Shown: positions 3,330-25,402, counted from the stretch's first letter. The stretch: 64,000 bases of DNA from an uncultured Ignavibacteriales bacterium (GCA_964416195.1 CAYQDB010000003.1:8555-72554); one strand, 5' to 3'. The notes: generated by a model from the sequence alone, not told the origin. A program made the numbers and translations.

Positions 3330-3396
3330 GTGGGCTTGACCTACTTATTGCTATTAGATACATTCGGGCAAACATTAGGCGACCCTGAAAGGAACT

Positions 3397-9735: not shown

Positions 9736-10222
9736 TTAGCGTTTCACTTCAGGCAGCCGTTTATTCATCTCTGCTGAGTAATGGGCGTTCGGGCCAACGA
9801 GCAGAGCTATGATATTTCCAAGCAACCCATTGATTGGCTGTCAAATAGGCGCAACACATCAAGTATTACATTAGCAGTGAAGTAACCACATGTAGCCGGC
9901 ATCGAGGCGAACAGGCAATCCTTTAGGGTCTGTTCAATTAATTAGTTTTCCTGATTTCGTCTTTAGGAAATCTTTATGAAAAAAAGGGGGTATCTTGACT
10001 GATGGATTATGGGCATATGCTTATAATGCGTCGGCAATGATTATGTTAGGAGGTAACAGGGTTGGTCAGTCCGAGATATCCTGGACGAGTAGGAAGGCTG
10101 CCCAGGAAAAGCCGTGAAAACGCTGTTTGTTTGTAAGGTGCTGTGAATAGAAGGGGGTGAAATCGAGATGGCAGAAATGAATATGTACATGGAGAATGAT
10201 TAGGCCATAAAGGAGATAGGCG

Positions 10223-10438
10223 ATGGCAGAGATGAATAAACAACGGTATGGACCAAGTGGATACTGTATCTGCCCGAAGTGTGGTTACAGAAAACCCCAC
10301 GGGAGGGGTGTCCCCTGTCAGGAAGAGCGCTGTCCTAAGTGCAGAGGTAAGATGGTTCGGGAAGGTGGCCTGCACCACATACAGATCATGGAAGGACAGA
10401 AAAAAGCCGCACAGCGGAAGAATAAAAACGGTGAGTGA
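10223..10438 (+). CDS. small zinc-ribbon protein (CxxC...CxxC)
   Basis: 71 aa with [30 protein letters not shown]. Good SD (aaaggag) upstream. Confidence 0.55.
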
Positions 10439-10559
10439 TTTGTGAAGCTGTTGCCTAAAGGATCAGAAGATCGAATCAAACGGGCGGGACTTGCTATCGT
10501 TTCTGTTGAGATGTACCTTGAGAAAGTTACATGGAACCGTGTACCGGAGGCTATAGCAA

Positions 10560-11045
10560 TTGCAGGAGATTCAGTATCGACCGATAGGCATCATACATTC
10601 GCCATTCCAACAACCCCACGGGGCGCCGATCCAGCCGCGAGCAGCAGAGGGTGTCCAAGGCACGGTTGAAGTGTTCGATGAATTCAAGGAGGGACTGGCC
10701 GACCTCGATGGCTTCTCACACATCATTCTGGTTTACCATCTCCACTTGTCGGATGGCTATGCGCTAAAAGTGAAGCCGTTTCTCGATGATACTCGTCGCG
10801 GCCTTTTTGCTACCCGCGCCCCTCGGCGACCGAACCCGATCGGCATTTCTGTTGTTCCTCTCAGGAAGATAGACGGCGACACGCTGTACATAACAAATGT
10901 GGACATAATTGAAGGCACGCCGCTGCTGGATATCAAGCCGTACGTTCCTGAGTTCGACAGGGAGGTAGACATACGGGTTGGATGGCTTACGGGCAAATCC
11001 CACCGTGTCAAAGACACGTTTTCCGATGACCGGTTCAAGAAGTGA
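10560..11045 (+). CDS. trmO: tRNA (t6A37-N6)-methyltransferase TrmO (YaeB/TsaA-like)
   Basis: IGIIHSPF, FSHIILVYHLH, RRPNPIGISVV and GTPLLDIKPYVPEFD motifs. TTG start with GGAGG 9 nt upstream. Confidence 0.8.
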   Translation: MQEIQYRPIGIIHSPFQQPHGAPIQPRAAEGVQGTVEVFDEFKEGLADLDGFSHIILVYHLHLSDGYALKVKPFLDDTRRGLFATRAPRRPNPIGISVVPLRKIDGDTLYITNVDIIEGTPLLDIKPYVPEFDREVDIRVGWLTGKSHRVKDTFSDDRFKK

Positions 11046-11088
11046 GGATGGCTGAGCGATCGGCGACAGCCTCGATAGGGCTTGATGG

Positions 11089-12027
11089 GTGATGATTGTT
11101 TACACGGACAGTATCGAGTACGCTGAACAAGTTCTCTCGCCAGGGCTGTCCTGGGAGATGGCATCCCCGGCATCTGCCAGAAAAGAGGTCAAGAGCCTGG
11201 TGTCTAACCTCTTTTGCACCAGCTCCCTTGCCGTGTCCGCTGTAGATTGGAATCAGGTTTGGAAATACCTGTTCATTGTCAAGTCTGCTCCTGAGTCCCA
11301 GTACGATGCGCTGATCGAGCTGGCACGGTCGGAATGGCAGCTTCCGAACGGGGTGCTCTGCCTGGCCGGTTCGGGAAGTAAGCTGCATGGGTACAAAAAC
11401 AGGCCCTGGGTCAGCCTGGCTGGAAACATTCACCTGTCAGCTTACCTAACGCCTCAACAGAAAGTGGACCATTTTGGCGTTGGATTTACCATGCTATCCG
11501 CGGTCTCGGTGATTGAAACCATTGATTCCATTGCAGGCCTACAGCGAGAAGCATCCGTCAAGTGGGTAAATGATATACTGATTGAGAATGCCAAGGTATC
11601 GGGTGTGTTAGCCCAGACGCAGAGCCAGGGGGAGGTCGTGACCGGCGCCGTTTTAGGGATCGGCCTCAACGTTGAGGTCACTCCCCACATCGAGCGCGAT
11701 CCCTTCGTACCCAGGGTCGCTTCGCTGAGAGATTTTGTACAGGATGCGAATGAGTGCAATCAGAGAATGGCGTTTAATAAGCTAGCGTATATCCTGAATA
11801 AGAACTACCGACTCCTCTTGGGTGGGCACTATAGTCGGTTGCTTGATTTCTACCGGGAAAGGTCATTGGTTGTCGGCAGAAAAGTGAGCATTTACCCTGA
11901 TTCTTCTGATGGTTCCTGCCATGAAGTAGTTTACGGCACTGTCGTTTCGATCGGTGAAAACCTGGAACTGTACCTTGAAGGTATCGACACGCCTGTTTCC
12001 AGAGGCAGGTTGGTGTTACAAACTTGA
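11089..12027 (+). CDS. biotin--protein ligase-like (BPL/LplA family) with divergent biotin loop
   Basis: KWVNDILIENAKVSGVLAQT and GIGLNV match BirA. The GRGRxGRxW loop is replaced by GSGSKLHGYKNRPW. Start is GTG 11089 or ATG 11092. Confidence 0.65.
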   Translation: MMIVYTDSIEYAEQVLSPGLSWEMASPASARKEVKSLVSNLFCTSSLAVSAVDWNQVWKYLFIVKSAPESQYDALIELARSEWQLPNGVLCLAGSGSKLHGYKNRPWVSLAGNIHLSAYLTPQQKVDHFGVGFTMLSAVSVIETIDSIAGLQREASVKWVNDILIENAKVSGVLAQTQSQGEVVTGAVLGIGLNVEVTPHIERDPFVPRVASLRDFVQDANECNQRMAFNKLAYILNKNYRLLLGGHYSRLLDFYRERSLVVGRKVSIYPDSSDGSCHEVVYGTVVSIGENLELYLEGIDTPVSRGRLVLQT

Positions 12028-12142
12028 ATTACCGCTTCATGGTTTGGTAGGTGGAGTTCTCAGTGGCAAAACCCTGCAGCAGTGGGTTCGACCTCGCGTG
12101 TTGCCGTGCATGAGATTTAGTGTACATGCTGCCTGTTTCACG

Positions 12143-12166
12143 AAAAAGGCGCCCGTGGGGACGCCT
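12143..12166 (-). terminator. rho-independent terminator of the S41 protease gene
   Basis: The minus strand reads aggcgtcc-ccac-gggcgcct followed by ttttt, about 30 nt downstream of the stop at 12194. Confidence 0.55.
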
Positions 12167-12193
12167 CGAATGAACCCGGGAAGCATAAAGTGC

Positions 12194-14005
12194 TTAATTC
12201 AACTCTGCTTTTTTCTGCCCCCGTGAAATCAACTCTGAGTATTCGCCGGGAGTGGTGAGAATCTCAACTGCCTTCAAAATGGCCTTATCGGTTTTAAGAA
12301 CCACATTTTCATAGACACCTCGTTGACCGGCAATGGCCGCGACCACCTCGCGCTTGATCGTCTTTCTGATGTAATCGAGAGAGCGGTTGAAATCCTGGGC
12401 CTTCTCCAACTTCACAAGCTTCTGGAGACTGTCAATCATTCCTGTGAAGAGGCTGTCATTACCCTCGGAAGTGATGGATTCCTGAAGTTCTTCCATGGCG
12501 GCCTCAAGTGTAGACTTATAGTCGAACTCTCTATCCTTGATATACTGTCTGAACTCTTCGACTATCTCGTCGGTGATTTCAAGACTTGGTTTCACTTCAG
12601 GATATTCGGCAACATACTTCACGGCGAAATCGAAAAACATTGACTGCCGCCAGAGGTTGATATCAATAGGTTTCCAGGTCTCACGCTCAATCTCAATGTC
12701 CGGTACAATTCCACCGCCACCGTAGACAACCCGACCGCCATTAGTGTAGTAGATTTCCTGCTGGGGCGGCACTGTGAGCGAGTCGCTCTCTTCGGTGCCC
12801 TCTTGGGCTTCGGGAGGAGGAGTCTTGCTCTTTTTGTTCTGATTCTCCGGCTTTTGGATGCAGCGTCCGGAGGGGACGTAGTACTTGGCAGTGGTTAGTT
12901 TCAGTGCCATGCTGCCATCACTCGATAGCGGGAATATCTGTTGAACGAGACCCTTCCCATAGGTGGCATTGCCGAGAATAAGGCCTCGGTCCCAATCCTG
13001 TATTGCTCCGGAGACAATTTCCGAGGCTGAGGCAGTGCCCTCATCAACCAGAACGATTAACGGCTTGTCCGGGAACAAAGGAGGGCGCTCCGACGAATAG
13101 TGGCGTTCAGTGTTTTCCCATCGGCCCCTGGTGTAAACGATTTCACTGCCCTGCTCCAAAAATAACTCGGAGGTTTCCTTGGCCTGGTCAAGAAGTCCGC
13201 CACCGTTGGAGCGGAGATCGAATACCATAGCTGAGATATTTTGATCATTGAGAGAGCTAATAGCTTCTCGCAGTTCGTGACTTGTCTCTTCAGCAAAACG
13301 GGAAAGGCGCACATAACCGATATTGGTACTGGGAATAATGCCGTAATAATTGACCGACTTTAACTCAATGAGAGCCCGCTCAATTTCAAATTCTATCGGA
13401 TCCTTGATACCGGTTCTTTTGATTTTAAGTATTATCGAGGTACCCGCCTTACCGCGCATCAGCTTGGAGGCTTCCGAGGCGGTCATCCCTTCGGTTGACT
13501 GGCCCTCAATTTCCCAGACGACATCGCCGGCCTTGAGTCCCTTTCGATAGGCTGGTGTTCCTTCTATAGGGGCAATGATACGAATCCGGTTATCGCGGGC
13601 GTCAATCTGCATTCCCAGCCCTTCGTACTTCCCGTGCGTGGACTCCATGAGGGCATCATAGGTGGATTTCTCCATCAGTGTCGAGAACCGATCGAGATCG
13701 CTCAGCATACCTTTGATACCAGCCTTGATGATCTCCCCGGTGTTGACTTCCTCCATGTACTGGTTCCTGATGTTAAAGGCTGTCTGTGTTAGTTTCTTGA
13801 CATCTCTGAGGAATGAATCCCGCTTATTGGCCTGTTCTTCTTGCTCGGATGAACCGGCTTCGAGGTTTATGTGAACGGTGTCAGCCCAGAGAACAGGCTC
13901 ATCAGAGTTGGAGTTCTGGGTGGCTTCACCGGAACCGACAAACCAGATTGTCGCGAGTGCAAAGAGGGTAATACCAAAGAGCTGAAGTGTATAGCGAACC
14001 ATCAA
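12194..14005 (-). CDS. S41 family C-terminal processing (tail-specific) peptidase with PDZ domain
   Basis: 603 aa. N-terminal signal anchor, PDZ segment (GLKAGDVVWEIEG), DLRSNGGGLL and TASASEIVSGA motifs. Confidence 0.85.
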   Translation of the reverse strand: MMVRYTLQLFGITLFALATIWFVGSGEATQNSNSDEPVLWADTVHINLEAGSSEQEEQANKRDSFLRDVKKLTQTAFNIRNQYMEEVNTGEIIKAGIKGMLSDLDRFSTLMEKSTYDALMESTHGKYEGLGMQIDARDNRIRIIAPIEGTPAYRKGLKAGDVVWEIEGQSTEGMTASEASKLMRGKAGTSIILKIKRTGIKDPIEFEIERALIELKSVNYYGIIPSTNIGYVRLSRFAEETSHELREAISSLNDQNISAMVFDLRSNGGGLLDQAKETSELFLEQGSEIVYTRGRWENTERHYSSERPPLFPDKPLIVLVDEGTASASEIVSGAIQDWDRGLILGNATYGKGLVQQIFPLSSDGSMALKLTTAKYYVPSGRCIQKPENQNKKSKTPPPEAQEGTEESDSLTVPPQQEIYYTNGGRVVYGGGGIVPDIEIERETWKPIDINLWRQSMFFDFAVKYVAEYPEVKPSLEITDEIVEEFRQYIKDREFDYKSTLEAAMEELQESITSEGNDSLFTGMIDSLQKLVKLEKAQDFNRSLDYIRKTIKREVVAAIAGQRGVYENVVLKTDKAILKAVEILTTPGEYSELISRGQKKAELN

Positions 14006-14349
14006 GGCCTCCAGTCATGTTATAATAGCACTGAGTATAATGTAACCGCCATTCTCAACTTGTCAAGCCCGGCGGGATTTGTATCTTCAGACGTATCCAC
14101 TTGCCAATTATACGTTTATCATATTCGTTTAGTTGCCATGCCCGCGACTGATAAGTAGAAAAAATGAATAACTCATTGTACATTTAACAGTTAGGTCATT
14201 ATTTTCATGGCAGCCAGTAACTTTTTTGAGACTGGGTCCGTTAGCAATATTGGGACGATGATGTTAACTTGTTTGGTTACATCGGGATGGTTCTGTAAAT
14301 CCGCCACAAGGAAAGGGGAAATAGTGCGCTTTTTGAACAGGGGGCGCTT

Positions 14350-15135
14350 GTGCCCAAGATAGATGGTCGGTCACTGCCGTACAACCTTTTCTTGCACCTC
14401 CTACTGCCCGGGCTGGGACATCTCCTGTGGCGCGAGTATCTGTTTGGCATTTTTATCTTCCTGGTGACGTTATTGGCGTCGGTTCTCTTCATTGTCTCGC
14501 TTTTCATACATCTTCCAGTGGGAGTGAAGCTGGTCTTGTACGCTCTGCCTCTGTTGTTCTATGCTTTTACGTTTCTTGATCTGGTGCGCACAGTCAAAGA
14601 CAGGCGGCAGAAAATAACACCTGGCCGCAAGATAATCATCATTATCCTACTGCTGGGAGTGGCCTACCAGTTTTTATCCCCGATTGCGCCACTCAATTTC
14701 TCTTTGAGAAACTTCCCGGAGATATTCATTCAAAAGGATAATCGCCTCAGTCCTCTATATTCTGAGGGTGATTTGCTGAAGGCGAGTCGGCTTTCATACA
14801 TGGTTGATGTGTTTGTCGTTAACAGACCCATTGTGCACGCTCTGCCGCAGAGGTATGACATCGTCAGGTTCTCTGACAGTTCCGGCAGACGCCTCAACGG
14901 TATCGTCGTCGGTCTTCCCGGAGAAGAGATTGAAATAGCGGGTGGCGTTGTTGTGGCCAACGGTTTGCCTGATTTCGGAGAAGCGCCGGGAGGAATTATT
15001 CTCTCTGGTGAGTGTCCGTTGACTTTGGTGGGGGCATACTCTATTTTGGTGGCGACATTGAACTTGGGCAGGATCGATGGGGTCCAAGAGGTACCCCTGA
15101 CGGATGTGATTGGAGAAATAGGCAGGCTTTTTTGA
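14350..15135 (+). CDS. membrane protein with signal-peptidase-I (S26)-like C-terminal domain, catalytic dyad not evident
   Basis: About four N-terminal TM helices. The C-terminal GDLLKASRLSY...RYDIVRF...NGIVVGLPGEEIEIAGGVVVANG parallels GD...V.K..Y...RGDIVVF...KR.IGLPGD.V...G....NG. GTG start. Confidence 0.45.
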   Translation: MPKIDGRSLPYNLFLHLLLPGLGHLLWREYLFGIFIFLVTLLASVLFIVSLFIHLPVGVKLVLYALPLLFYAFTFLDLVRTVKDRRQKITPGRKIIIIILLLGVAYQFLSPIAPLNFSLRNFPEIFIQKDNRLSPLYSEGDLLKASRLSYMVDVFVVNRPIVHALPQRYDIVRFSDSSGRRLNGIVVGLPGEEIEIAGGVVVANGLPDFGEAPGGIILSGECPLTLVGAYSILVATLNLGRIDGVQEVPLTDVIGEIGRLF

Positions 15136-15800
15136 CGCTCATTAAGAATCTGATCTTCGACCTTGACGGCACATTGATAGACTCGTCTGAAGGAGTGGTC
15201 GATGCAGTAAACTATTCCCTCAGACAGATGGGCCAACCCGAACAGAAGCCGGAGGCAATAAAAGCCTTCATCGGCTATCCACTGGAAAAGATGTATCCCC
15301 ACTTTACCGACGCATCCCTGGATGACCTCTGTACCCACTTCCAAGCGAAGGCGAATAAAACGGTTGTAACCTCCACACAGATGCTACCCGGTGTCGAAGA
15401 GACGCTTCGCCGGCTTGAAGAGTGTGGATACCGTATGGCCATAGCAACGACCAAGATTAGAGTCAATGTCGATGGGATACTTAAGAAGTTAGGATGGCAG
15501 AAAATCTTTCACGTGGCAACAGCCGGGGACGAAGTTGAGAAGGTCAAGCCTGACCCGGCTATATTCAGATTGACGCTGGAGCGTCTCAAGGCTGAGCCCC
15601 ACGAAACCTTGGTGGTTGGTGATACCGTCAATGATGTTCTCGCCGCAAGGGCGGTACCGATGAAGGTCGTCGCGGTGGCCTCGCCATATGGCGGCAGAAG
15701 GAGAGTAGCAGCTGTCGGTCCTGACTTTTTTATCGACTCGATAACGGAGCTCGTGGATCTGCTGGATAATCACAACAGGAGGAAACTGAAAAACCAGTGA
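15132..15800 (+). CDS. HAD-superfamily phosphatase (phosphoglycolate phosphatase-like)
   Basis: Motif I FDLDGTLIDS, ATTK, and VGDTVNDVLAA. TTG start at 15132 overlaps the upstream stop (TTGA). The track ORF start at 15012 lies inside the upstream gene. Confidence 0.75.
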   Translation: MTLIKNLIFDLDGTLIDSSEGVVDAVNYSLRQMGQPEQKPEAIKAFIGYPLEKMYPHFTDASLDDLCTHFQAKANKTVVTSTQMLPGVEETLRRLEECGYRMAIATTKIRVNVDGILKKLGWQKIFHVATAGDEVEKVKPDPAIFRLTLERLKAEPHETLVVGDTVNDVLAARAVPMKVVAVASPYGGRRRVAAVGPDFFIDSITELVDLLDNHNRRKLKNQ

Positions 15801-16297
15801 GAAAGCTTTACCTGCATTCGTTTGCTTCGAGGATTGGAACTATCCGCACAGTGGCCACCGATAAAGGCCTAGCGCTTGTATTTCTCCCCAGTGAGCCCAG
15901 GAAGCTCTTCGAAGGGAAGATCAAGAAGCTGTTCCCCGGATATGAGATCTCTGCCGGGGGAAAAATAAACAAGCAGGCGCAGAAGCAGCTTAACGCTTAT
16001 CTGGATGGTCGGCTCAGGAAGTTCACGTTGAAGCTTGACATTTACGCATCTCCTTTTCATAAGAAGGTGCTTAAGCGCGTTGCAAGAATCCCCTATGGGA
16101 AGATACTGACCTATGGCGAAGTTGCGCGTGCTATCGGGTATCCAAAGGCATATCGTGCGGTCGGTGCCGCCAATGCGCGAAATAACTTGCCGTTGGTAAT
16201 CCCTTGTCATCGCGTTGTAGCCTCGACCGGCCTTGGCGGCTATGGGGGAGGGCTTGAAATGAAGAAGAGGCTGTTGCGTCTGGAGGGAGCGCCATGA
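15797..16297 (+). CDS. ogt: methylated-DNA--protein-cysteine methyltransferase
   Basis: IPCHRVV active-site motif and YGEVARAIGYPKAYRAVGAANARN. GTG start overlaps the upstream stop. Confidence 0.85.
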   Translation: MRKLYLHSFASRIGTIRTVATDKGLALVFLPSEPRKLFEGKIKKLFPGYEISAGGKINKQAQKQLNAYLDGRLRKFTLKLDIYASPFHKKVLKRVARIPYGKILTYGEVARAIGYPKAYRAVGAANARNNLPLVIPCHRVVASTGLGGYGGGLEMKKRLLRLEGAP

Positions 16298-16339
16298 ACG
16301 ATTTTCCCATGTCGTGAGAGATGTTATCTGGCAAACACA

Positions 16340-16585
16340 AAGGCATGTCACCCTGAGCGGAGTCGAAGGACCCTGTCATCCTGCCTGACGGAGTGTCATG
16401 GTTCGACTCCGCTCACCATGACTATAAGAGAAAGAGTAGGTCGGGTTTCTCGGTCGTCCGCCTGAGGCGAGCTCCCTCGGAACGCCGACCTACGGGTCTT
16501 CCGTTTATATAGTCAAGCACACGTACTGTCTCCAGAAAGGTAGGTCGGGTTCCGATCCGCCTATTGCGGGGAGAAACCCGACATA
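16340..16585. repeat. cluster of dispersed hairpin repeats
   Basis: gagcggagtcga core; gtcatggt-tcgactccgctc-accatgac (8-bp stem); gtaggtcgg...ccgacctac (9-bp stem); gtcgggtt...aacccgac. Confidence 0.6.
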
Positions 16586-16690
16586 GTAACAGTAAAGGAC
16601 GCCCTGTTCCTAACCAGATTCGATTGACCCATCATCTCATTTTCGCTACATTGCTGTCAGAATGATATAACAACAAAACGGAGTTGAGCT

Positions 16691-17947
16691 ATGTCATATC
16701 TCAAACAAGTCGACCCGGAAATATACGATGCCATTATCAAAGAGACTGACCGCGAGGCCAGCAAATTGGAGTTGATTGCCTCCGAGAACTTCGTTTCTGA
16801 GGCGGTCCTGGAAGCGGCGGGCGGCGTCATGACCAACAAGTATGCAGAGGGTTACCCCGGCAAACGGTACTACGGAGGATGCGAGTTTGTCGATATTGCC
16901 GAGGACCTTGCCCGCGAACGGCTCAAGCAGTTGTTTGGCTGCGAGCACGCTAACGTTCAGCCGCACAGCGGCTCCCAGGCTAACATGGCAGTGTATTTTA
17001 CTGCCTTGAAGACGGGAGATAAGGTAATGGGGCTTGATCTCTCTCACGGCGGGCACCTCACTCATGGTCACCCGATCAACTTCTCCGGCTTCCTTTTCGA
17101 TTTCGTCAGTTACCAGGTCGACAAAGAAACCGAAGTTATCAACTATGACCGCCTGATTGAGCAGGCCAAAGAGGTCAAGCCGAAAATGATTGTCGCCGGT
17201 GCCTCGGCCTACCCGCGCTTCTGGGATTTCGATAAAGTCCGCGAGGCCTGCGACGTCTGCGGGGCGTACATGATGGTCGACATTGCCCACATTGCAGGCC
17301 TGATTGCAGCCGGTGTGCATCCATCGCCGATTCCGATGGCCGATTTTGTAACTTCCACGACTCATAAGACACTGCGAGGGCCGAGGGGCGGAGTGATTAT
17401 GTGCAAGGAGAAATATGCCGCCGATCTCGACCGCATGGTCATGCCCGGTATCCAGGGCGGACCGCTGATGCACATCATTGCGGCCAAGGCTGTCGCCTTC
17501 AAGGAAGCCTTGACGGATGAGTTCAAAGCGTATCAGAAACGCATCATAGAGAACGCCAAAGCTCTTGCTGAAGCTCTCAAGGGATACGGCTATCATATCG
17601 TCGCGGGTGGTACTGATACCCATCTGATGCTGGTGTCATTTATCGATGTCCCCAAACTCACCGGAAAGAAAGTCGAAAAGGCGCTGGATAAAGCCGGTAT
17701 CACGGTCAATAAAAACACCGTTCCGTTCGATCCCGAGAAGCCGTTTGTCACTTCCGGCATTCGGATTGGTACACCAGCCATCACAACACGTGGCATGGGG
17801 ATAGAAGAGATGAAGCAGATTGCGGATTTTATCCACCGCGGTATCCAGAACCGTCGCAACGATGAAGCTCTGGCCGAAATAGCCAAGGAAGTGGCGGCGT
17901 TGTGCGAAAAGTTTCCGCTCTATCCAGAGCGCTTACAGGAGGCGTAA
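16691..17947 (+). CDS. glyA: serine hydroxymethyltransferase
   Basis: 418 aa with full-length SHMT signature, including [13 protein letters not shown] (PLP lysine). Confidence 0.95.
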
Positions 17948-17949
17948 CA

Positions 17950-18258
17950 ATGTTGTTTCAGTTAGCAATGTTTCCCACCAGTAAGGGGACGGTGTCGGTC
18001 TCGGCGGATGTCGCCAAAGTAATCGACATTATTGACAAGTCCGGCCTGCCCTACAAGCTGAGTGCCATGTCAACCGTAATCGAGGGCGACTGGGAGCCGG
18101 TGATGAAGGTTATCAATAAGGCGCGCCTGACGCTGCGCAAGAGGCACAACCGCATTTACATTGTGCTGACGATTGATGACCGCAAAGGAGCCAGAAACCG
18201 CCTGACCGGTAAGGTCAAGTCGATTGAAAACAAACTCAAGCGAGAGGTGAAAAAGTAA
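17950..18258 (+). CDS. MTH1187/YkoF-family (DUF77) thiamine-binding-like protein
   Basis: ATG at 17950, MLFQLAMFPTSKG...STVIEGDW, about 100 aa as typical of the family. Confidence 0.65.
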   Translation: MLFQLAMFPTSKGTVSVSADVAKVIDIIDKSGLPYKLSAMSTVIEGDWEPVMKVINKARLTLRKRHNRIYIVLTIDDRKGARNRLTGKVKSIENKLKREVKK

Positions 18259-18264
18259 TGGAAA

Positions 18265-18383
18265 TTGCTTTTTCTGTCGGTTCTTGCACGCCAAAGGCGG
18301 GTGTGAACCGACAGTTTGCCAGTTGGTCGTCAGGTCACATCCGCTTTCGCGGACAAGACCTGACGAAACTCAGGGAAAAAAGG
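18265..18383. repeat. 119-bp double-hairpin insertion between DUF77 gene and cutA, flanked by 30-nt junction duplication
   Basis: Flanks 18235-18264 and 18384-18413 match 28/30. Inside: ctgtcggttc...gaaccgacag (10-bp stem) and tcgtcaggtc...gacctgacga (10-bp stem with an inner tccgc/gcgga hairpin). Confidence 0.65.
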
Positions 18384-18406
18384 CTCAAGCGAGAGGTGAG
18401 GAAGTA

Positions 18407-18727
18407 ATGGAAACAGTGCGAGTAGTTTTTATCAGTATCCCGCGCGACGAGGCCAACAAACTGGCGCGCACCCTGGTGGAGAAACGTCTGGCCGCCTGTA
18501 TCAACATTGTACCCAAGATCGAGTCCTATTTCCGGTGGGTTAACAAAGTGGAGCATGACGAGGAGGCGCTTTTGATTGCCAAAACCACCCAGCAACGCAT
18601 CGACGAATTGATGCTCTATGTGCAAGCCAACCACCCCTACGAATTCCCCGAGGTAATATCATTGCCTTTATCCGAAGGCCTCCCCGACTACGTCGCCTGG
18701 GTGAAGAAGGAGACAAAACAGGGGTAG
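18407..18727 (+). CDS. cutA: divalent-cation tolerance protein CutA
   Basis: ATG at 18407. LAACINIVP.IESYFRW...EEALLIAKT...HPYEFPEVISLP matches the CutA1 family. Confidence 0.85.
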   Translation: METVRVVFISIPRDEANKLARTLVEKRLAACINIVPKIESYFRWVNKVEHDEEALLIAKTTQQRIDELMLYVQANHPYEFPEVISLPLSEGLPDYVAWVKKETKQG

Positions 18728-18748
18728 GGTGCACAGTTAGCGTGTCAA

Positions 18749-19498
18749 ATGGGTAAGAAAAAAACTCAGATTACAGTTCGCACGGAGGATAAGTCGAAGT
18801 TTCTCGGCCTAACTGCGGTGTGGTGGGTCGTCGTAATCATGGTAGTGGGAATTCCTGTCAGCATCTGGCTGGCATTTCGTGATGGTGGCAACGGTGAGAA
18901 ACAACTACTTGAACAGAGGGTTGAGAAACTGCAAGCCGATAAGGAAGAACTGTATTCACTGTTACACCAATGCCTTGGCAATACCCCTATCATTCTTGAT
19001 AAAGACAATCCACCACCTGAGCCTGACTGTTTTGACACGGTTGAAATTGAAGTCAGAAACATCATTGAACAGGGAGGCTATGTAAACGGAGCGGATTTGC
19101 TGAGAGTTGGTAACGTTCTTTATACAAAGGGCGATTGTCAGAAAGCACTGTCCTATTATCAAGTTGCCCTTAACCAAGCTGGGCAGCACGATGACAGTTC
19201 GCTCATTGCTTCTGCAAAGGGTAATATCGGTCTGATCTATTCTGACAAGGGTGATCTGGATGAGGCGTTGAAATATCACCAGGCGGCGTTGGAAATTCAC
19301 AAGGAAGTTGGGTACCGCCAGGGTAAGGCGAATCAGTTAGGTAATATCGGTCTGATCTATAAAGCTAAGGGTGATCTGGATGAGGCGTTGAAGTATCTGA
19401 AGGAAGCTTTGGAGATTTTTGAAGCCCATGGCTATACGAAAGAAGTCGAACAGACCAAAAGAAACATTGCTGAGATTGAGCGAATGAAGAATGAGTAG
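18749..19498 (+). CDS. membrane-anchored TPR-repeat protein
   Basis: N-terminal TM helix. Tandem units GNIGLIY..KGDLDEALKY..(A/E)ALEI recur with 120-nt periodicity and long identical nucleotide runs. Confidence 0.75.
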   Translation: MGKKKTQITVRTEDKSKFLGLTAVWWVVVIMVVGIPVSIWLAFRDGGNGEKQLLEQRVEKLQADKEELYSLLHQCLGNTPIILDKDNPPPEPDCFDTVEIEVRNIIEQGGYVNGADLLRVGNVLYTKGDCQKALSYYQVALNQAGQHDDSSLIASAKGNIGLIYSDKGDLDEALKYHQAALEIHKEVGYRQGKANQLGNIGLIYKAKGDLDEALKYLKEALEIFEAHGYTKEVEQTKRNIAEIERMKNE

Positions 19499-19499
19499 T

Positions 19500-19965
19500 T
19501 GTTACACTTCGACTCCGAAACTGTGTCATAAATCGCAATTCACGCTTTCTCATGGTGGCGTCAGGCGTCTCTGCCTGACGCTTGCACGACGTATTGGTGT
19601 ATTGCGTATTCACTTGTGGCTGTCGGGCAGAGACACCCGACAGCACCTTGTAAGCTCAGGACAGGCAGGGCTTTTGACCTACGGGGATTGTTGGGGCAGA
19701 TGTGGACATCTGCCACCCACGATACTCGCCTTTGGCGTACTGCCCACAGTACACGGATGTCATTCCCGCGAAAGCGGGAATCCAGGTACTTAACGTTGAG
19801 AAAAGAGACACGAATGGATTCCTGCTTCCGCAGGAATGACGGGCGAGTAGCCTTATTGAGTCAGGTGCAAAAGGAACCTGAGCTACTAGGGCAGATGTGG
19901 ACATCTGCCGCATACAAGCAAGAAGGGTATGACAACATAGGCGAATTGGCGAGCCGAACACGGAA
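19500..19965. repeat. intergenic array of at least six unrelated perfect hairpins (REP/MITE-like)
   Basis: Hairpins at 19558-19581 (9 bp), 19620-19643 (8 bp), 19695-19714 and 19890-19909 (identical ggcagatgtggacatctgcc), 19762-19781 (attcccgc gaaa gcgggaat) and 19818-19837 (attcctgc ttcc gcaggaat). Confidence 0.7.
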
Positions 19966-19966
19966 A

Positions 19967-20029
19967 ATGAAATACTCCAAGTGCGGACATGAGGAAGATA
20001 AGGTCATAGGCAGCAAAAGTGGATATTGA
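19967..20029 (+). pseudogene. decayed duplicate of the nrdR 5' end (20-codon remnant ORF)
   Basis: 19967-20005 matches nrdR 21115-21153 at 35/39 nt. Remnant MKYSKCGHEEDKVIGSKSGY versus NrdR MKCPKCGHEEDKVVDSRPS. The first zinc-ribbon Cys is lost. Confidence 0.65.
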
Positions 20030-20972
20030 AATCCTGGGAACGGAGTCTCTGGGGGTCAGGGGGCTTTCGTGTTTTGTCAGAGCCGGAAATCAAAGAATAC
20101 TGATCGATCCGGGTATTGCCTTAGGTTACATCCGCCACGGGTTGCTGCCGCACCCTTTTCAGGTAGCCGTTGACGAAAGGATACAGAAGAAAATCGTGCA
20201 GAGATGGTCTGACGCTACGGATATAGTCATCAGCCATTTTCATGGAGACCATGTTCCCCTTGCGGATGCCAACCCGTATCAGTTCAATATCAGGAAGGTA
20301 ACCGGATTGAATCCGCACGTCAGGATATGGACAAGGAGTCTGTCGCATCTCTCAATGGTGCAAAAACGAAGAGCGGAGTCCCTTTCCACAGTATTACGCA
20401 CTGATCTGTTACCGGCGGAAGGGACCACACAGGGAATAATGACTTTTTCCGGGCAGGTATGTCATGGCGAAAAAAGCAGCCATCTGGGAACTGTAATAAT
20501 GACCAGGATTGAGGAAGATGGTGTGTTTGTGCACGCTTCTGATATTCAGCTTCTCAACGACGAAGCGATTTCCATAATACTGTCCTGGAAACCTGATATT
20601 GTATTCGCTGCCGGACCGCCTCTCTACCTGTACCACAAGGTTTTCAAAAGCAAAATGAGAATAGCCTGGCATAATGCCAGAATTCTTTCAGAGCGGGTTG
20701 GCATTTTAATTCTTGATCATCACTTGATGAGGAGTTATGAAGGGATTACATGGCTGAAGCGTCTATCGGTGGAGACAGGGAACAAGGTTATCTGCGGAGC
20801 GGACTTCATGGGGAAGCCGCGGATGTTGCTCGAAGCCAGGCGCAGGGACCTGTACAAGGATATGCCTGTCCCGTCCGGCTGGCATGAAGCCTATGGCAGG
20901 GGTGAGGTAAGCACTGATGCTTATTGGAGGTCAGCAAAGAGACTCTACAAGGAGATGAGGCTAAGCGACTAA
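20019..20972 (+). CDS. MBL-fold metallo-hydrolase, archaeal UPF0282-like
   Basis: SHFHGDH motif. The N-terminus LGTESLGVRGLSCFV....RILIDPGIALG..R.GLLPHP recalls the UPF0282 family. GTG start overlaps the nrdR remnant ORF. Confidence 0.65.
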   Translation: MDIEILGTESLGVRGLSCFVRAGNQRILIDPGIALGYIRHGLLPHPFQVAVDERIQKKIVQRWSDATDIVISHFHGDHVPLADANPYQFNIRKVTGLNPHVRIWTRSLSHLSMVQKRRAESLSTVLRTDLLPAEGTTQGIMTFSGQVCHGEKSSHLGTVIMTRIEEDGVFVHASDIQLLNDEAISIILSWKPDIVFAAGPPLYLYHKVFKSKMRIAWHNARILSERVGILILDHHLMRSYEGITWLKRLSVETGNKVICGADFMGKPRMLLEARRRDLYKDMPVPSGWHEAYGRGEVSTDAYWRSAKRLYKEMRLSD

Positions 20973-21114
20973 GGAAGTAGCGTAGGTCGAAGCCCCGTGG
21001 TTTCGACAAAGATATGAGACTTTGACGTGTGACCTACATGAATAAAGAGATTACCCACAGCAAAGCTGTGGGGTACCTCTGGTGTGTGAACGAACAATCA
21101 TGATTGGTTACTGA

Positions 21115-21567
21115 ATGAAATGCCCTAAGTGTGGACATGAGGAAGATAAGGTCGTGGATAGCAGGCCGTCACAGGATGGCCGGGCGGTGCGCCGTCGCCG
21201 TGAATGCCTGAAGTGCCACGAACGCTTCACGACATACGAGTATGTTGAGCACGGCACATTAACCGTCCTCAAGTCCGACGGCCGTAGGGAGCCGTTTGAC
21301 CGCAATAAAATCCTGACCGGCATCAAGCTGGCCTGCAACAAACGCCCGGTGACCGGCCAGCAGATGCAGTCAATGCTGGACAGTATCGAGGCCGAGCTCA
21401 GCGCCCGTTTTCGCACTGACGTCACCAGCAAGGAGATCGGTGAGGTGGTTATGCAGAAACTACGCGAGGTGGACGAGATCGCCTATGTCCGCTTTGCGTC
21501 GGTATACCGCCGTTTCCAGGATGCGGCTGAGTTCCTTGAGGAGATCAAGAAGCTGCTCGACAAGTAA
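21115..21567 (+). CDS. nrdR: transcriptional repressor NrdR
   Basis: MKCPKCGHEEDKVVDSR...RRRRECLKCHERFTTYE zinc ribbon plus ATP-cone. Confidence 0.95.
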   Translation: MKCPKCGHEEDKVVDSRPSQDGRAVRRRRECLKCHERFTTYEYVEHGTLTVLKSDGRREPFDRNKILTGIKLACNKRPVTGQQMQSMLDSIEAELSARFRTDVTSKEIGEVVMQKLREVDEIAYVRFASVYRRFQDAAEFLEEIKKLLDK

Positions 21568-21609
21568 CATGCGAAGAAACCCACCGCAAGCTGTGGGCCA
21601 CCCTGTCAG

Positions 21610-21690
21610 CACTATTTCTTTGTTGTCATGGTGAGCGGAGTTGAACTATGAACGTTGCCCCTCGACTCCGCTCGGGGTGACGGTATCGTG
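21610..21690. repeat. hairpin repeats of the TCGACTCCGCTC-core family
   Basis: gtcatggtgagcggagttgaac and cccctcgactccgctcggggtgac. nrdR is also flanked by CCCACAGC-loop-GCTGTGGG hairpins at 21054-21072 and 21580-21597. Confidence 0.55.
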
Positions 21691-21741
21691 CGGGGCAAAA
21701 CCATTTGACATCTATACGGATCATCCACACATTCCGGTTTA

Positions 21742-22476
21742 ATGGTAGACGATGAAGAAAAGCACGAGGTATCGGAGTCCGGTTCTATGCCATTCGTAGA
21801 CCACCTTGAAGAGCTGCGGTGGCGTTTATTGAAGTCGCTTCTCGCCGTAGTGATTCTGTCGCTAGCTGCCTTTTACTTCTCTGACTACCTGATGAAATTC
21901 TTCGTTGTCCCCGCCGGTAATATCAAGCTTCATGTCACCGAGGTGACCGGCTCATTCTATGCTTACCTGAAGGTTTCGTTGATAACAGGAATCGTAGCAG
22001 CCTCTCCCATTGTTTTTTATCAGCTGTGGGCGTTTGTGAGCCCGGGGTTGTATCCCAGAGAGAAAGCTCATGTGTTGCCAATGGTGTTTGTATCGACGGT
22101 ACTCTTCCTGGTCGGGGCCGGATTCTGTTACCTTGTCATGCTTCCCTTCTCGTTGAAATTTCTTATTAGTTTTTCCGGTGAGTTGCTGAGTCCGATCATC
22201 ACGGTCGGCAGCTATCTGACCTTTGCAGGCGTAATGATGCTGGCTTTTGGGATTGGTTTTGAAATGCCGGTTGCGGCCTATTTCCTTGGTAAAGCCGGTA
22301 TTGTGTCATCGCGTTTCCTGGCCAAGGGCAGGCGCTACGCCATTGTACTGATTCTCATCGTTGCGGCACTCCTCACCACTCCCGATGTGGCCACTCAGTG
22401 CCTGCTGGCGCTTCCCCTGTACGTGCTGTACGAGGTTTCCATTATTGTTGTGAAGGTAACGGGTAAGAAGAGATAG
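21742..22476 (+). CDS. tatC: twin-arginine translocase subunit TatC
   Basis: 244 aa with six TM helices and a conserved N-terminal region, MPFVDHLEELRWRLLKSL. Confidence 0.9.
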   Translation: MVDDEEKHEVSESGSMPFVDHLEELRWRLLKSLLAVVILSLAAFYFSDYLMKFFVVPAGNIKLHVTEVTGSFYAYLKVSLITGIVAASPIVFYQLWAFVSPGLYPREKAHVLPMVFVSTVLFLVGAGFCYLVMLPFSLKFLISFSGELLSPIITVGSYLTFAGVMMLAFGIGFEMPVAAYFLGKAGIVSSRFLAKGRRYAIVLILIVAALLTTPDVATQCLLALPLYVLYEVSIIVVKVTGKKR

Positions 22477-22535
22477 GCGAGGTAGGTTACCTTTCTCTGT
22501 CTTGCCTCCGGCTGGTATTGGTGTGTCTAAGCCTG

Positions 22536-22564
22536 TTGACAATCAGACTGCCCAAGGCTAAATT
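22536..22564 (+). promoter_or_regulatory. sigma70-type promoter (TTGACA-N17-TAAATT) upstream of the truncated tRNA-Gly copy
   Basis: TTGACA at 22536-22541, a 17-nt spacer, TAAATT at 22559-22564, about 20 nt before position 1 of the tRNA sequence. Confidence 0.45.
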
Positions 22565-22584
22565 GCATCAGGTAATATTGGATA

Positions 22585-22630
22585 GCGGGCGTAATTCAGT
22601 GGTAGAATGCAAGCTTCCCAAGCTTGACGC
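22585..22630 (+). pseudogene. truncated tRNA-Gly (nt 1-46 only); left direct repeat of the islet
   Basis: 46/46 identical to 25313-25358. The T arm and 3' acceptor strand are absent. Confidence 0.85.
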
Positions 22631-22793
22631 TACCAGAACAAGTCTAATTGTCTGCCATAACTCCAAGTCTTTCAAGGGGGAACGCCAATATTGAGATCAA
22701 CCCATCTCCGATAATTGGGGCTATATAAGACAAGCCCCAAAGAGATGAAGCCGGAGAATTAGTAGGTGGTTTTTGGTTTGCCGACTCGCCTAC

Positions 22794-22825
22794 AAAAAAG
22801 CCAACAGTTAACGAGTGCTGTGGGC
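22794..22825 (-). terminator. rho-independent terminator of the islet operon
   Basis: The minus strand reads gcccacag-(10-nt loop)-ctgttggc (7/8 bp) followed by tttttt, about 20 nt after the stop at 22844. Confidence 0.5.
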
Positions 22826-22843
22826 TTTCTGTTATCTGTTTAT

Positions 22844-23266
22844 TCACCAGTTGCCGGAATCGACAATTTGCTGCTGTTGCTTTCGATCTGCATACCAATG
22901 TCCATTCCATAGAATTCGCCGGTATTTGTATTCCTCATTATCGCTGTTAGCGTATCTGATGCTGAATGTACGCTCACCGTCAATGCGGTGTCCTACAGCA
23001 TCAACCACAGTGCCGACAAATACCATTGGCGATTGGCTATTAACACGATAATACAGCTTGACTCCAGGATAGATTCGAGGTTCACACCATCTGGACTGTT
23101 CAACAGCAGAGAGGGTGTGCTGTGATTTTTCTACTTGTGGTTTACTGGTTTGTGGTTTGGTATTCTGTACATTGTAGCCCGTTATTGCTGAAAAAACAAT
23201 AAACGCCAATACTGCAGCTATAATAAAAAGCCAGCCTGTTGCTGAGGGATTCTTATATTGTTTCAT
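22844..23266 (-). CDS. hypothetical N-terminally anchored protein (islet ORF4)
   Basis: ATG at 23266 with an agagg SD. MKQYKNPSATGW followed by a TM helix. No family recognised. Confidence 0.55.
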   Translation of the reverse strand: MKQYKNPSATGWLFIIAAVLAFIVFSAITGYNVQNTKPQTSKPQVEKSQHTLSAVEQSRWCEPRIYPGVKLYYRVNSQSPMVFVGTVVDAVGHRIDGERTFSIRYANSDNEEYKYRRILWNGHWYADRKQQQQIVDSGNW

Positions 23267-23279
23267 TGTCAAACCTCTG

Positions 23280-23672
23280 TTAAAGAATAGTCCAATTGTT
23301 AGGATTGTGAGGATTGCCGCCATCCCATACCACTTTACAATCCGCCACCGAAGAATCATAAGCAGCACCGTTCACATAAAGTATCCAGTATCCTGTAACA
23401 GTCCACGTATACTTACTACTGTCTTTATTGATGACAGTAATGGTGTCTATTGCACCATGATATTCCATATTATAATCCCACGGAACAGGAGTTTTGTGTA
23501 AGTCCCGCATCATGTCTTTATATACACGAGCTATAAATTTGTTGACAACTACTGTTGCGTCATCTGTGGTAGGCGGATGTGGCACATATCTGTTATAAAG
23601 CCAAGACCAAGCAGCAATTTGACTTATTATTGCTACCACTGCCAGTACTACAATCCATCTTGTTTTCATCAC
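23280..23672 (-). CDS. hypothetical N-terminally anchored protein (islet ORF3), paralogue of ORF1
   Basis: TM helix, PPTTDDA, C-terminal GGNPHNPNNWTIL (compare ORF1 GRNPAISHNWRIL). Confidence 0.55.
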   Translation of the reverse strand: MMKTRWIVVLAVVAIISQIAAWSWLYNRYVPHPPTTDDATVVVNKFIARVYKDMMRDLHKTPVPWDYNMEYHGAIDTITVINKDSSKYTWTVTGYWILYVNGAAYDSSVADCKVVWDGGNPHNPNNWTIL

Positions 23673-23691
23673 GACCTCTTAATTTTGTTAT

Positions 23692-24156
23692 TTAAGGCAG
23701 GCTATAATGAGCCTCTGCGATTACATATTCTCCACTGCTGGCGGATGTCTTCATTTTTACACCATCTACATAAATCGACACATGCAAACCCACACATGCT
23801 GGATCCGTCAATTGAGCACTGACGTATAGAAAATTGCCTTTTATCGCTCCAAACGAATACGTCCAAGGTTCGTTCCTTTTGAAGTATGCTTCTTTTTGTG
23901 ATGTTCCACCATCAGCATTGGTGTAAGTAATAAAAACTTCAGAATATTCAGTATATCCGGTGCGGACCTCATATTCGATATTGTGTACTGTGTATTCGTC
24001 AACATAAGCAGAAACAGAGACATTTTCACTATATGCTGGTTTCTTGTTGTTGTGACCAGTACCAGTATGTGTCAAAGCTATGATGAATACTATAAAAACA
24101 GGTACGATAACGAGCCACAACAAAAAGGGAGTTTTTTTCTTTTGCTGTTTCATCAC
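23692..24156 (-). CDS. hypothetical N-terminally anchored beta-rich protein (islet ORF2)
   Basis: TM helix followed by YEV..G....V.ITYTNADGG..Q......PW.......VSAQ.......V.IYVDG, loosely MmpS-like by eye. Confidence 0.5.
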   Translation of the reverse strand: MMKQQKKKTPFLLWLVIVPVFIVFIIALTHTGTGHNNKKPAYSENVSVSAYVDEYTVHNIEYEVRTGYTEYSEVFITYTNADGGTSQKEAYFKRNEPWTYSFGAIKGNFLYVSAQLTDPACVGLHVSIYVDGVKMKTSASSGEYVIAEAHYSLP

Positions 24157-24620
24157 GACCTCCTTTCACCAATTGCTCGATTGCGATTGTCAACTGACAT
24201 AAGGCTGGTTCCCATTGAAAAATAAAGGATTCGCCAATTATGAGATATCGCCGGATTGCGACCCATCCATTGCATATCCAATACTAATGTTGTCGAATCT
24301 ACAACGGTATTACCCTTATCTTCGGACATCAAGAACCAGCCTTCGGCTCTCCACACATTATACTGCATCTTGGGATACAAATCTGCATCTCTCTTCGATA
24401 CTGTAAGACAGTAATGTGTGTAATAACCCTCCTCCAAACCAATACTTGCAGCCACAAGAGCAGAATCACAGAGCGTCTTCATTGCATTCACCGCATCTAA
24501 CGTTGTTGGTCGCAGTGGCATACCATACCAATATTGTGCTGTTACCAGCAGAACAACAGAAGCGACAATAGTAATAGCAGTCCACCAACCTGCTGAAAGA
24601 TGATCCTTATATTGTTTCAT
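24153..24620 (-). CDS. hypothetical N-terminally anchored protein (islet ORF1)
   Basis: MKQYKDHLSAGWW followed by a TM helix. 4-nt overlap with ORF2. Shares a 15-nt start region (cttatattgtttcat) with ORF4. Confidence 0.55.
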   Translation of the reverse strand: MKQYKDHLSAGWWTAITIVASVVLLVTAQYWYGMPLRPTTLDAVNAMKTLCDSALVAASIGLEEGYYTHYCLTVSKRDADLYPKMQYNVWRAEGWFLMSEDKGNTVVDSTTLVLDMQWMGRNPAISHNWRILYFSMGTSLMSVDNRNRAIGERRS

Positions 24621-24676
24621 TTTATATTTCCCCCTAATTTAAAAGTTATCCATATACTTCATCGGCAATGGTGACC

Positions 24677-24826
24677 TTATTTATTATTAAGTAGTAGCAT
24701 CTCCATTTCGTCAGCAATATCTTCAAGCTGCGCATACTGTTTGCTGGTGCCAAATTCTGATTCGGTTAAATGCACACGTAGACGTATTACCAGATTATCA
24801 AGTATTTTATACATTATTACTGTCAT
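24677..24826 (-). CDS. possible 49-aa small ORF upstream of the islet operon
   Basis: MTVIMYKILDNLVIRLRVHLTESEFGTSKQYAQLEDIADEMEMLLLNNK. Below the track cutoff. Preceded by a possible 27-aa basic ORF at 24829..24912. Confidence 0.25.
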   Translation of the reverse strand: MTVIMYKILDNLVIRLRVHLTESEFGTSKQYAQLEDIADEMEMLLLNNK

Positions 24827-25162
24827 AACTACATTTCCTGCACCTGCTGTTTTGATTTAGTTTGCATTTTCATCTTACGCCTGCCTTTCTTGGTGGATGA
24901 GTATGTCATCATTCTAATTTATTAGAATGGCAAAGAACGTGCCGATTGATCGAAGCTAAGGAGAGGTATTGCCCTTGGCCTTTGTTTTGGATGTACTCTC
25001 GCACGGTATATACCTTAAACGCTTACGTACGGGGAAGAGCTTCCGAGACGCACTCCTGTGGACAGGAGCCGGTGGATTAGACCAGCATATATAGAGCAAG
25101 ACCTATATTGGTAAACTGTATATATAATTTGTGGATTTGTTCCTACATCTTCGATATATCTG

Positions 25163-25191
25163 TTGACTATATTGGAATGCGCCAATATAAT
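25163..25191 (+). promoter_or_regulatory. sigma70-type promoter (TTGACT-N17-TATAAT) inside the islet, pointing at the intact tRNA-Gly
   Basis: TTGACT at 25163-25168, a 17-nt spacer, TATAAT at 25186-25191, about 120 nt upstream of the tRNA. Confidence 0.4.
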
Positions 25192-25312
25192 ACACGCCTG
25201 TGCAACTTGACAGAGACGGCTTTGTGTATTTTTTTGTATATAGAGACATTTTGAGACGTCAAGTCTTGGAGATGAACAGTATCTCGAAGATGACGTTTCT
25301 TCTTGGAGACAA

Positions 25313-25384
25313 GCGGGCGTAATTCAGTGGTAGAATGCAAGCTTCCCAAGCTTGACGCCGTGGGTTCGAGTCCCATCGCCCGCT
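25313..25384 (+). tRNA. tRNA-Gly (anticodon CCC)
   Basis: 72-nt cloverleaf drawn by hand: acceptor gcgggcg/cgcccgc, D arm attc-agtggta-gaat, anticodon arm caagc-ttCCCaa-gcttg, T arm gtggg-ttcgagt-cccat. No encoded CCA. A T-run follows. Confidence 0.9.
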
Positions 25385-25402
25385 TTTTTTAATGGATGCG
25401 AC

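Follow-up and report, generated by a model that had tools for sequence, protein, structure and literature searches.

A 64,000-nt stretch of the genome of an uncultured Ignavibacteriales bacterium (GCA_964416195.1 CAYQDB010000003.1:8555-72554; the whole stretch, numbered from its first nucleotide, is hereafter called the window) contains four genes whose 5' end is present twice, with additional DNA between the two copies. These are a zinc-ribbon gene (case 1), cutA (case 2), nrdR (case 3) and a tRNA-Gly(CCC) gene (case 4). Does this locus record one process directed at gene starts, as an earlier note on this DNA had proposed, or several unrelated events? Our answer, held with moderate confidence, is that the four repeats are the scars of four separate insertion events that occurred at different times in a packed and conserved gene block. 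Their likeness would result from a survivorship filter: where genes abut, an insertion would survive only if it left the gene start intact. The repeats, the ancestral empty sites, the foreign character of the inserts and the differences in age are shown; we infer both this filter and the recombination chemistry proposed below for each event.

All four repeat pairs were recovered where the earlier note had placed them, and three could be extended, to 47/47 identical positions for tRNA-Gly, 34/39 for cutA and 42/50 for nrdR (coordinates in Table 1). A scan of the whole window for repeat pairs at least 16/17 identical and at most 5 kb apart detected 11 pairs. Besides the four cases, they comprise coding repeats of tetratricopeptide repeat (TPR) proteins and paralogues, one palindrome pair (21 nt, in a hairpin cluster) and one gene start repeated within the insert of case 4. 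The four cases are the sole non-paralogous close-range repeats of the window. Block-wise dinucleotide shuffles gave a mean of 0.84 pairs, and of 0.04 for spacings of at most 200 nt, versus the 11 pairs observed. All four cases lie inside 15 kb, and the other 49 kb of the window contains no such scar. Furthermore, the junctions of cases 1-4 are spanned at 99.7-100% identity by contigs assembled independently from other samples (JGI L168, L169, L170, L175, L177 and L178; Logan L001, L002, L083, L084, L171 and L176), that of case 1 specifically by contigs L175-L178. Since independent assemblies reproduce every junction, the four structures are real and fixed in the sampled population.

In the nearest genomes and in metagenome contigs, the homologous genes are found in the order serine hydroxymethyltransferase (SHMT)-thiamine-binding protein (ThiBP)-CutA-(TPR)-NrdR-TatC-tRNA-Gly-radical SAM-Der. 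The closest relatives, labelled Ignavibacteriales, Zixibacteria or Calditrichaeota, have NrdR proteins 68-77% identical to that of the window. In most relatives the ThiBP stop and the cutA start overlap (TAATG or ATGA). In L004 and L090 an overlap (GTGA or ATGA) joins the TPR stop to the nrdR start, cutA sits 12-24 nt ahead of nrdR in L008 and L009, and TatC, tRNA-Gly(CCC) and the radical-SAM gene are contiguous in L003 and L006. These arrangements bear out the claim that the duplications flank insertions. Neither the metallo-beta-lactamase (MBL)-fold gene found at nrdR nor the islet found at tRNA-Gly is present in the nearest relatives with conserved order. The fact that these relatives keep the gene order without the MBL gene or the islet indicates that all the inserts are derived in the lineage of the window.

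The four scars have different ages, cargoes and boundaries. The two copies differ at 0/47 positions in case 4, 1/17 in case 1, 5/39 in case 2 and 8/50 in case 3, i.e. by 0, 6, 13 and 16%. The cargoes are unrelated: low-GC foreign orphan genes (case 4), an archaeal-type MBL gene (case 3), a hairpin pair (case 2) and a 38-nt spacer (case 1). Similarity begins at position -1 relative to the start codon or the tRNA +1 in cases 1, 3 and 4, but at -32 in case 2. The upstream copy, which had been described as a dead echo in every case, is for cutA the live 3' end and stop codon of the ThiBP gene. Comparison by eye revealed no motif shared by the insert ends, in line with the view already expressed in the earlier note that no common element links the four cases. 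In addition, the window open reading frames (ORFs) scanned gave no Pfam match to a recombinase or a transposase, and the gene table of L168 lists no recombinase for 25.4-34.6 kb. Given the differing ages, cargoes and boundaries and the lack of a shared end motif, a single mechanism is not supported, nor is the proposal that gene starts are the preferred target of one process.

In case 4, the repeat covers tRNA positions 1-46 and the preceding base (-1), and the identity breaks off abruptly where the T arm begins. The two copies are separated by 2,681 nt (2728 nt from start to start). The displaced fragment stands at the native distance behind TatC, and the GC content of the islet is ~40% versus ~52% for its flanks. 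The two strongest promoter matches of the region 17800-25500 are the promoter on the fragment side and the one at the islet right end; the latter, ~120 nt upstream of the intact tRNA gene, is the best match in the region. Moreover, the fragment followed by the first 26 nt of the islet scores 37.1 bits on the Rfam tRNA model, and the 3' acceptor strand found within these 26 nt pairs 7/7 with the 5' strand, with three G·U pairs (chance ~1 in 500 by our own estimate). This score and this pairing suggest that the attachment site of the islet derives from a whole tRNA-like sequence. The five islet ORFs tested (49-155 aa) gave only weak, sub-threshold Pfam matches and no NCBIfam match, and no integrase was found among them. 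A PHROG search of these ORFs returned a single weak match, to a family of unknown function. When billions of proteins were searched with two islet proteins for a full-length element encoding an integrase, each protein matched essentially only itself, and viral contigs searched for the tRNA 5' half and for one islet protein yielded nothing. The islet ends lack terminal inverted repeats, and all the contigs seen hold the integrated form only.

This organization was compared with that of known tRNA islands. The Islander paper reports 159 islands with a 5' tRNA-gene fragment versus 3760 with a 3' fragment, describes anticodon-centred attachment sites and places the 5' fragment upstream of the gene (PMC4383910). 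Like these islands, case 4 associates an intact tRNA gene with a co-oriented end fragment of the same gene, here a 5' fragment on the upstream side; the DNA between them has a foreign composition and a length within the 2-200 kb range of Islander, the identity block spans the anticodon stem-loop, relatives show an empty site, and the islet supplies what the gene lost (5' half and promoter). Unlike them, the islet does not encode the integrase that Islander requires, is only 2.7 kb long, carries four orphan membrane-anchored proteins as cargo, and has a left end that resembles a decayed tRNA 3' half (37 bits, Rfam tRNA model). Case 4 is an integrase-less member of the known minority class of tRNA islands with a displaced 5' fragment. 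Site-specific capture, one of the mechanisms put forward in the earlier note, fits this case, through its match to that class (PMC4383910). A foreign islet would have entered by site-specific recombination with the tRNA-Gly(CCC) 5' half, the symmetric anticodon stem-loop being the probable site of exchange, and would have brought along a promoter as well as a copy of its own of tRNA positions 1-46. Since the islet would have carried both, the working gene would now consist of the islet promoter, the islet 5' half and the host 3' half, the original host 5' half and promoter being stranded upstream. The integrase would since have been lost or would act from elsewhere in the genome. The predicted empty site is …GGATAGCGGGCG…GACGC+CGTGGGTTCGAG… and the predicted circle junction …CTTGGAGACA+AGCGGGCG…GACGC+TACCAGAACAAG….

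Several other features of the islet were noticed. Its proteins (22844-24620, minus strand) form small paralogue sets: two begin with MKQYK, two share a W.G.NP…NW.IL tail, and two of the genes have an identical ribosome-binding site and start (AGAGGTCGTGATGAAA). At the right end, two copies of GACGT(C/T)…CTTGGAGA (25255-25272 and 25292-25309) resemble an inverted tRNA anticodon arm (TCCCAAGCTTGACG); these copies may be recombinase-binding sites. The 3-kb gap between TatC and tRNA-Gly in L011, considered as a second islet, was rejected: it holds ordinary extra genes and no tRNA fragment.

In case 3, the upstream copy of the nrdR start (hereafter the echo) includes a 39-nt part identical to the functional gene at 35/39 positions and a perfect core of 21 nt (19985-20005). 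The MBL protein is ~70% identical to proteins of Methanosarcinales/anaerobic methanotrophic (ANME) archaea and of assorted anaerobes. Its GTG start lies 3 nt past the end of the echo. The protein begins at the native first residue of the PRK04286 family, which indicates that the foreign DNA begins essentially at the start codon. Apart from this gene, the insert contains hairpins only; a dedicated integrase gene is absent. A relative whose MBL protein is 91% identical (L085/L086) carries the same echo, and this echo matches the window nrdR better (35/37). This comparison indicates that the insertion predates the split between the two and that the echo of the window has decayed since. The mismatches of the echo lie on conserved NrdR residues. 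The echo is found in none of 163 other nrdR loci (genome and metagenome collections), and flanking echoes are absent around MBL homologues in five other contexts. We propose that the archaeal-type MBL gene would have landed 3 nt past the initial 50 nt of nrdR, under the original expression signals of nrdR, that a complete nrdR would have been regenerated downstream and that the stranded start would then have decayed.

Two options remain for the origin of this arrangement. The first is that an illegitimate insertion would have duplicated 50 nt and been retained because it gave the MBL gene the nrdR signals while regenerating nrdR. The second, by analogy, is that it may be a remnant of an element targeting a gene 5' end, like the dusA islands, which replace the 5' end of the gene and supply promoters (PMC4482086). 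As in dusA islands, the 5' end of the gene is present twice, imperfect direct repeats with a conserved core flank the insert, and the downstream copy works while the original start is stranded upstream (PMC4482086). Unlike dusA islands, the insert encodes no integrase, carries a single gene on 1.1 kb, has its cargo start 3 nt after the repeat and occupies a site unused in the 163 other nrdR loci. The 21-nt core and the -1 boundary speak for the 5'-end-targeting element. Illegitimate insertion is favoured by the missing integrase, by a site that is not used recurrently and by an MBL start that directly adjoins the repeat. At the level of titles and abstracts, literature searches for nrdR as an attachment site and for insertions of repetitive extragenic palindromic (REP) sequences with long duplications returned nothing relevant.

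Other candidates were rejected for case 3. The boundaries of the MBL gene misfit the G|TTRRRY core site of integron cassettes. A mobile cassette leaving echoes is not supported, the five other contexts being echo-free, and nrdR is not a recurrent target (echo in 0/163 other loci). Joint movement of the echo and the MBL gene had also been considered from L085/L086. There, the right flank departs from the window after GTAGGTCGAA and continues with MMLRCHFDRDFKLNAV, a sequence that looks by eye like the beginning of an IS3-family orfA interrupting a hairpin, and the difference on the left lies in a hairpin cluster. Flanks of this kind do not demonstrate joint movement. The IS3-family-like left end breaks up the hairpin that follows the MBL gene (L085 1915-2021 and L086 1480-1603), and in one of these contigs the echo is preceded by an FRG-domain gene (L085 3-749). 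In other genomes (L181 3001-5662; L183/L184 3001-4950), one or two additional MBL-fold genes accompany the PRK04286-type MBL gene in a cluster, and one of these additional genes matches the anti-Pycsar Apyc1 family.

In case 2, the repeat has a 30-nt core identical at 28/30 positions, surrounds an insert of 110 nt and extends just 7 nt into the cutA coding sequence. Two AAA-to-AGG changes, which would replace Lys by Arg in the ThiBP frame, account for four of the five differences between the copies. The region 18259-18410 folds at -65 kcal/mol (z = -6.4), the insert forming two strong hairpins. No further copy of the insert was found in the 64 kb or among the fetched loci, and its ends lack terminal inverted repeats. 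A double hairpin would have split the overlapping ThiBP stop and cutA start, leaving the junction on both sides and both genes intact. The window and L169 share 99.67% identity overall. Of their 21 mismatches, 9 are located inside the insert, and seven of these cluster in the tip of hairpin 1 (18286-18302); among them, a pair changes from CA…GG to TT…AA in a compensatory way and the loop switches from AAA to TTT. Such clustering may reflect either exchange with other copies or selection acting on the structure. RNA folding predicts pairing between the initial bases of the insert (AUUGCUUUUUC, 18264-18274) and the Shine-Dalgarno/start region of cutA (18396-18408), which could mask cutA translation. 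In a metagenome-assembled genome (MAG) of Omnitrophota (L067 8021-8312), a 184-nt REP-like hairpin insert is flanked by an imperfect 54-nt duplication that repeats the 3' end of a gene encoding 2,600 aa; this is a 3'-end counterpart of the cutA case.

The inserts share some features with known mobile sequences. As for REP/REPIN sequences, short GC-rich hairpins, some with a GTAG head, occupy spacers, the same families occur in related MAGs and the cutA insert is a hairpin pair. Unlike REP/REPIN sequences, the cutA insert is single in the 64 kb and in the fetched loci, and no RAYT transposase was found among the window ORFs scanned. To our knowledge, 39-nt target duplications have not been reported for REP/REPIN insertion. 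As for target-site duplications of transposons and insertion sequences (IS), direct repeats of the target surround inserted DNA. Unlike these, the repeats are long and of four lengths (17, 39, 50 and 47 nt), no transposase is found, the inserts are mutually unrelated and terminal inverted repeats are absent at the ends of the islet and of the case 2 insert.

Case 1 is the weakest of the four, with a chance expectation of ~0.04 per window. Its copies are identical at 16/17 positions with 38 nt between them, and the repeat coincides with two start codons, each having a Shine-Dalgarno sequence upstream. Homologue comparison shows that the zinc-ribbon gene belongs to a real small family (motif CICPKCG…). 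No close relative displays an empty site: the nearest homologue is 68% identical and has another upstream gene. The spacer has no second copy in the window or in the fetched loci, and no sign of a structured RNA was detected (no Rfam match; fold no better than that of shuffles, z = 0.23). A local event of 55 nt would have made a short upstream ORF having the first five codons of the main gene. Upstream of the zinc-ribbon homologue of a relative (L173 2093-2442), a gene resembling by eye the ArsC/Spx family has an in-frame TGA at the expected catalytic cysteine and may thus encode selenocysteine.

Several observations weigh against the proposed explanation of the scars by four separate events. 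The integrase that would directly support the case 4 model is absent. At the ThiBP/cutA junction, L004 and L092 have unrelated REP-like hairpin inserts without duplication, indicating that the duplication is not required there for viability. Three of the four left boundaries lie exactly 1 nt before functional sequence, which is unexpected for random breakpoints, and cases 1 and 3 may also involve element-borne gene starts. With a 26/30 filter, two scars are found in 64 kb, whereas the homologous neighbourhoods of relatives, 1.88 Mb in total, yield ~2-3 comparable events; the scan of this genome covers the 64-kb window. This density and the grouping of all four scars within 15 kb hint at a lineage- or region-specific cause beyond the survivorship filter. 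A lineage-specific tendency, suggested by this local excess over the 1.88 Mb of relatives, is a minority possibility.

Among the other explanations, the one that best survives, although we consider it unlikely, is that cases 3, 4 and perhaps 1 are remnants of integrative elements that target gene 5' ends and bring a replacement 5' end, with repeats corresponding to attL/attR and integrases that have been lost. The -1 boundary of these three cases would be expected if element and host shared only functional sequence, dusA islands provide a precedent (PMC4482086), and the islet supplies the predicted promoter of the tRNA gene. Furthermore, case 3 has its 21-nt perfect core between diverged arms; given 8 random mismatches in 50 positions, such a run has p ~0.07 (own estimate). 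However, simple decay also explains the echo mismatches at conserved NrdR residues, no integrase is found in the nrdR insert, in the islet or among the window ORFs tested, and nrdR is not recurrently targeted in the 163 other loci. In addition, the MBL start codon, 3 nt from the echo, leaves no room for an attachment-site arm, and the case 1 insert is just 38 nt long.

It is still less probable that one lineage-specific process inserts DNA with long (17-50 nt) target duplications. Candidates for it would be a recombinase making widely staggered cuts, Campbell-type integration of circles with homology to gene starts or hairpin-associated template switching. Four events in 15 kb, a density ~20x that of the homologous neighbourhoods of relatives, argue for such a process, as do the abundance of REP-like hairpins, which are found within or next to the case 2 and case 3 inserts, and the similar 54-nt duplication around a REP-like insert at a gene 3' end in L067. 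On the other hand, no common end motif, inverted terminal repeats or candidate enzyme was seen, the duplications differ in length (17, 39, 50 and 47 nt) and in the position of their left boundary, the events are of very different ages and the remaining 49 kb of the window is scar-free. Moreover, the case 4 islet has no REP-like hairpins and fits a known mechanism. We also regard as improbable an undescribed and still-active insertion system that would act at the first nucleotide of protein and tRNA genes, with 17-50-nt duplications and no recombinase within the insert. Such a system could take the form of a trans-acting recombinase mobilising integrase-less cassettes with replacement gene starts; if it existed, it would have generated the tRNA-Gly islet, the nrdR/MBL module and the small inserts alike. 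Finally, chance matches or assembly artefacts are a very improbable source of some or all of these repeats. In favour of this explanation, case 1 has a short, purine-rich repeat, for which shuffles predict 0.04 pairs per window (at least 16/17, spacing of at most 200 nt), and lacks a close relative to show its empty site. Against it, case 1 coincides with two start codons that each follow a Shine-Dalgarno sequence, cases 2-4 are far beyond chance and all four recur in independent assemblies of other samples.

Read as four separate insertions, the window shows foreign or selfish DNA entering a compact and overlapping housekeeping block without killing its genes. Two routes can be distinguished: a replacement gene start arrives with the insert, or the junction becomes duplicated. 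A clear example of the known but rare class with a 5' fragment is provided by the tRNA-Gly islet; as it has no integrase, tools requiring one, such as Islander, would miss it. The other three cases are ordinary though instructive scars. For instance, the nrdR/MBL module illustrates a transferred archaeal-type gene positioned to use the expression signals of a resident gene. Current understanding is unchanged, and only the local density of scars is unexplained.

Table 1. Coordinates of the repeat copies, inserts and neighbouring genes in the window
Feature	Positions	Strand	Remarks
Case 1 upstream copy	10167-10183	+	Start of 11-codon upstream ORF 10168-10203 (MAEMNMYMEND*), with own Shine-Dalgarno
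Case 1 spacer (38 nt)	10184-10221	+	Gives stop codon of upstream ORF and AAGGAG Shine-Dalgarno of zinc-ribbon gene
Case 1 downstream copy and zinc-ribbon gene	10222-10438	+	Copy 10222-10238; gene 10223-10438
SHMT gene	16691-17947		Pfam/NCBIfam assignment
ThiBP gene (PF01910)	17950-18258	+	Pfam/NCBIfam assignment; last 33 nt within case 2 upstream copy
Case 2 upstream copy	18226-18264	+	Last 11 codons and stop of ThiBP gene (live 3' end), plus ATGGAAA
Case 2 insert	18265-18374	+	Two stable hairpins, 18274-18314 and 18327-18366
cutA	18407-18727	+	Pfam/NCBIfam assignment; case 2 downstream copy 18375-18413 contains Shine-Dalgarno sequence and start codon
TPR protein gene	18749-19498		Pfam/NCBIfam assignment
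Spacer between TPR gene and nrdR echo (467 nt)	19499-19965	.	Hairpin-rich (REP-like); includes palindrome pair
Case 3 echo of nrdR start	19966-20015	+	Opens 20-codon ORF 19967-20029, stop overlapping MBL GTG start
MBL-fold gene (PRK04286 family)	20019-20972	+	Pfam/NCBIfam assignment
Spacer after MBL gene	20973-21113	.	REP-like unit GTAGGTC...GACCTAC 20982-21037; hairpin 21046-21080
nrdR, functional	21115-21567	+	Pfam/NCBIfam assignment; case 3 downstream copy 21114-21163
TatC gene	21742-22476		Pfam/NCBIfam assignment
Presumed native tRNA-Gly promoter (TTGACA-17-TAAATT)	22536-22564	+	20 nt upstream of fragment; now drives truncated copy only (predicted)
Displaced 5' fragment of tRNA-Gly (case 4 upstream copy)	22584-22630	+	To 22656 with first 26 nt of islet
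Islet (2.7 kb)	22631-25311	-	Four small membrane-anchored orphan proteins and 49-aa ORF
Near-consensus promoter (TTGACT-17-TATAAT)	25163-25191	+	Islet right end; points at intact tRNA gene (predicted)
tRNA-Gly(CCC), intact	25312-25385	+	Case 4 downstream copy 25312-25358; radical-SAM protein gene and Der downstream

GC-rich hairpin families fill the intergenic spacers of the gene block (3314-3344, 6499-6528, 16347-16585, 19499-19965, 20982-21037 and 21655-21684), and hairpins are likewise found in L004 (1770-2700 and 4870-5180) and L092 (3680-3850). Examples include GTAGGTCGAA.CCC…GGTTTCGAC, GTCA(C/T)CCTGAGCG.AGTCGAAGG.TGA, GTCATTCCCGCG…CGGGAATCC and CGTCAGG…CCTGACG. These families recur in related MAGs, a REP-type behaviour. 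In the spacer that precedes the nrdR echo, a perfect 21-nt palindrome (GGGCAGATGTGGACATCTGCC) is present twice, at 19694-19714 and 19889-19909, 195 nt apart. The hairpin segment between the two palindromes is missing from the 91%-identical relative, and three Logan contigs break at its left edge (19758/19759); these breaks may reflect a polymorphic nested insertion.

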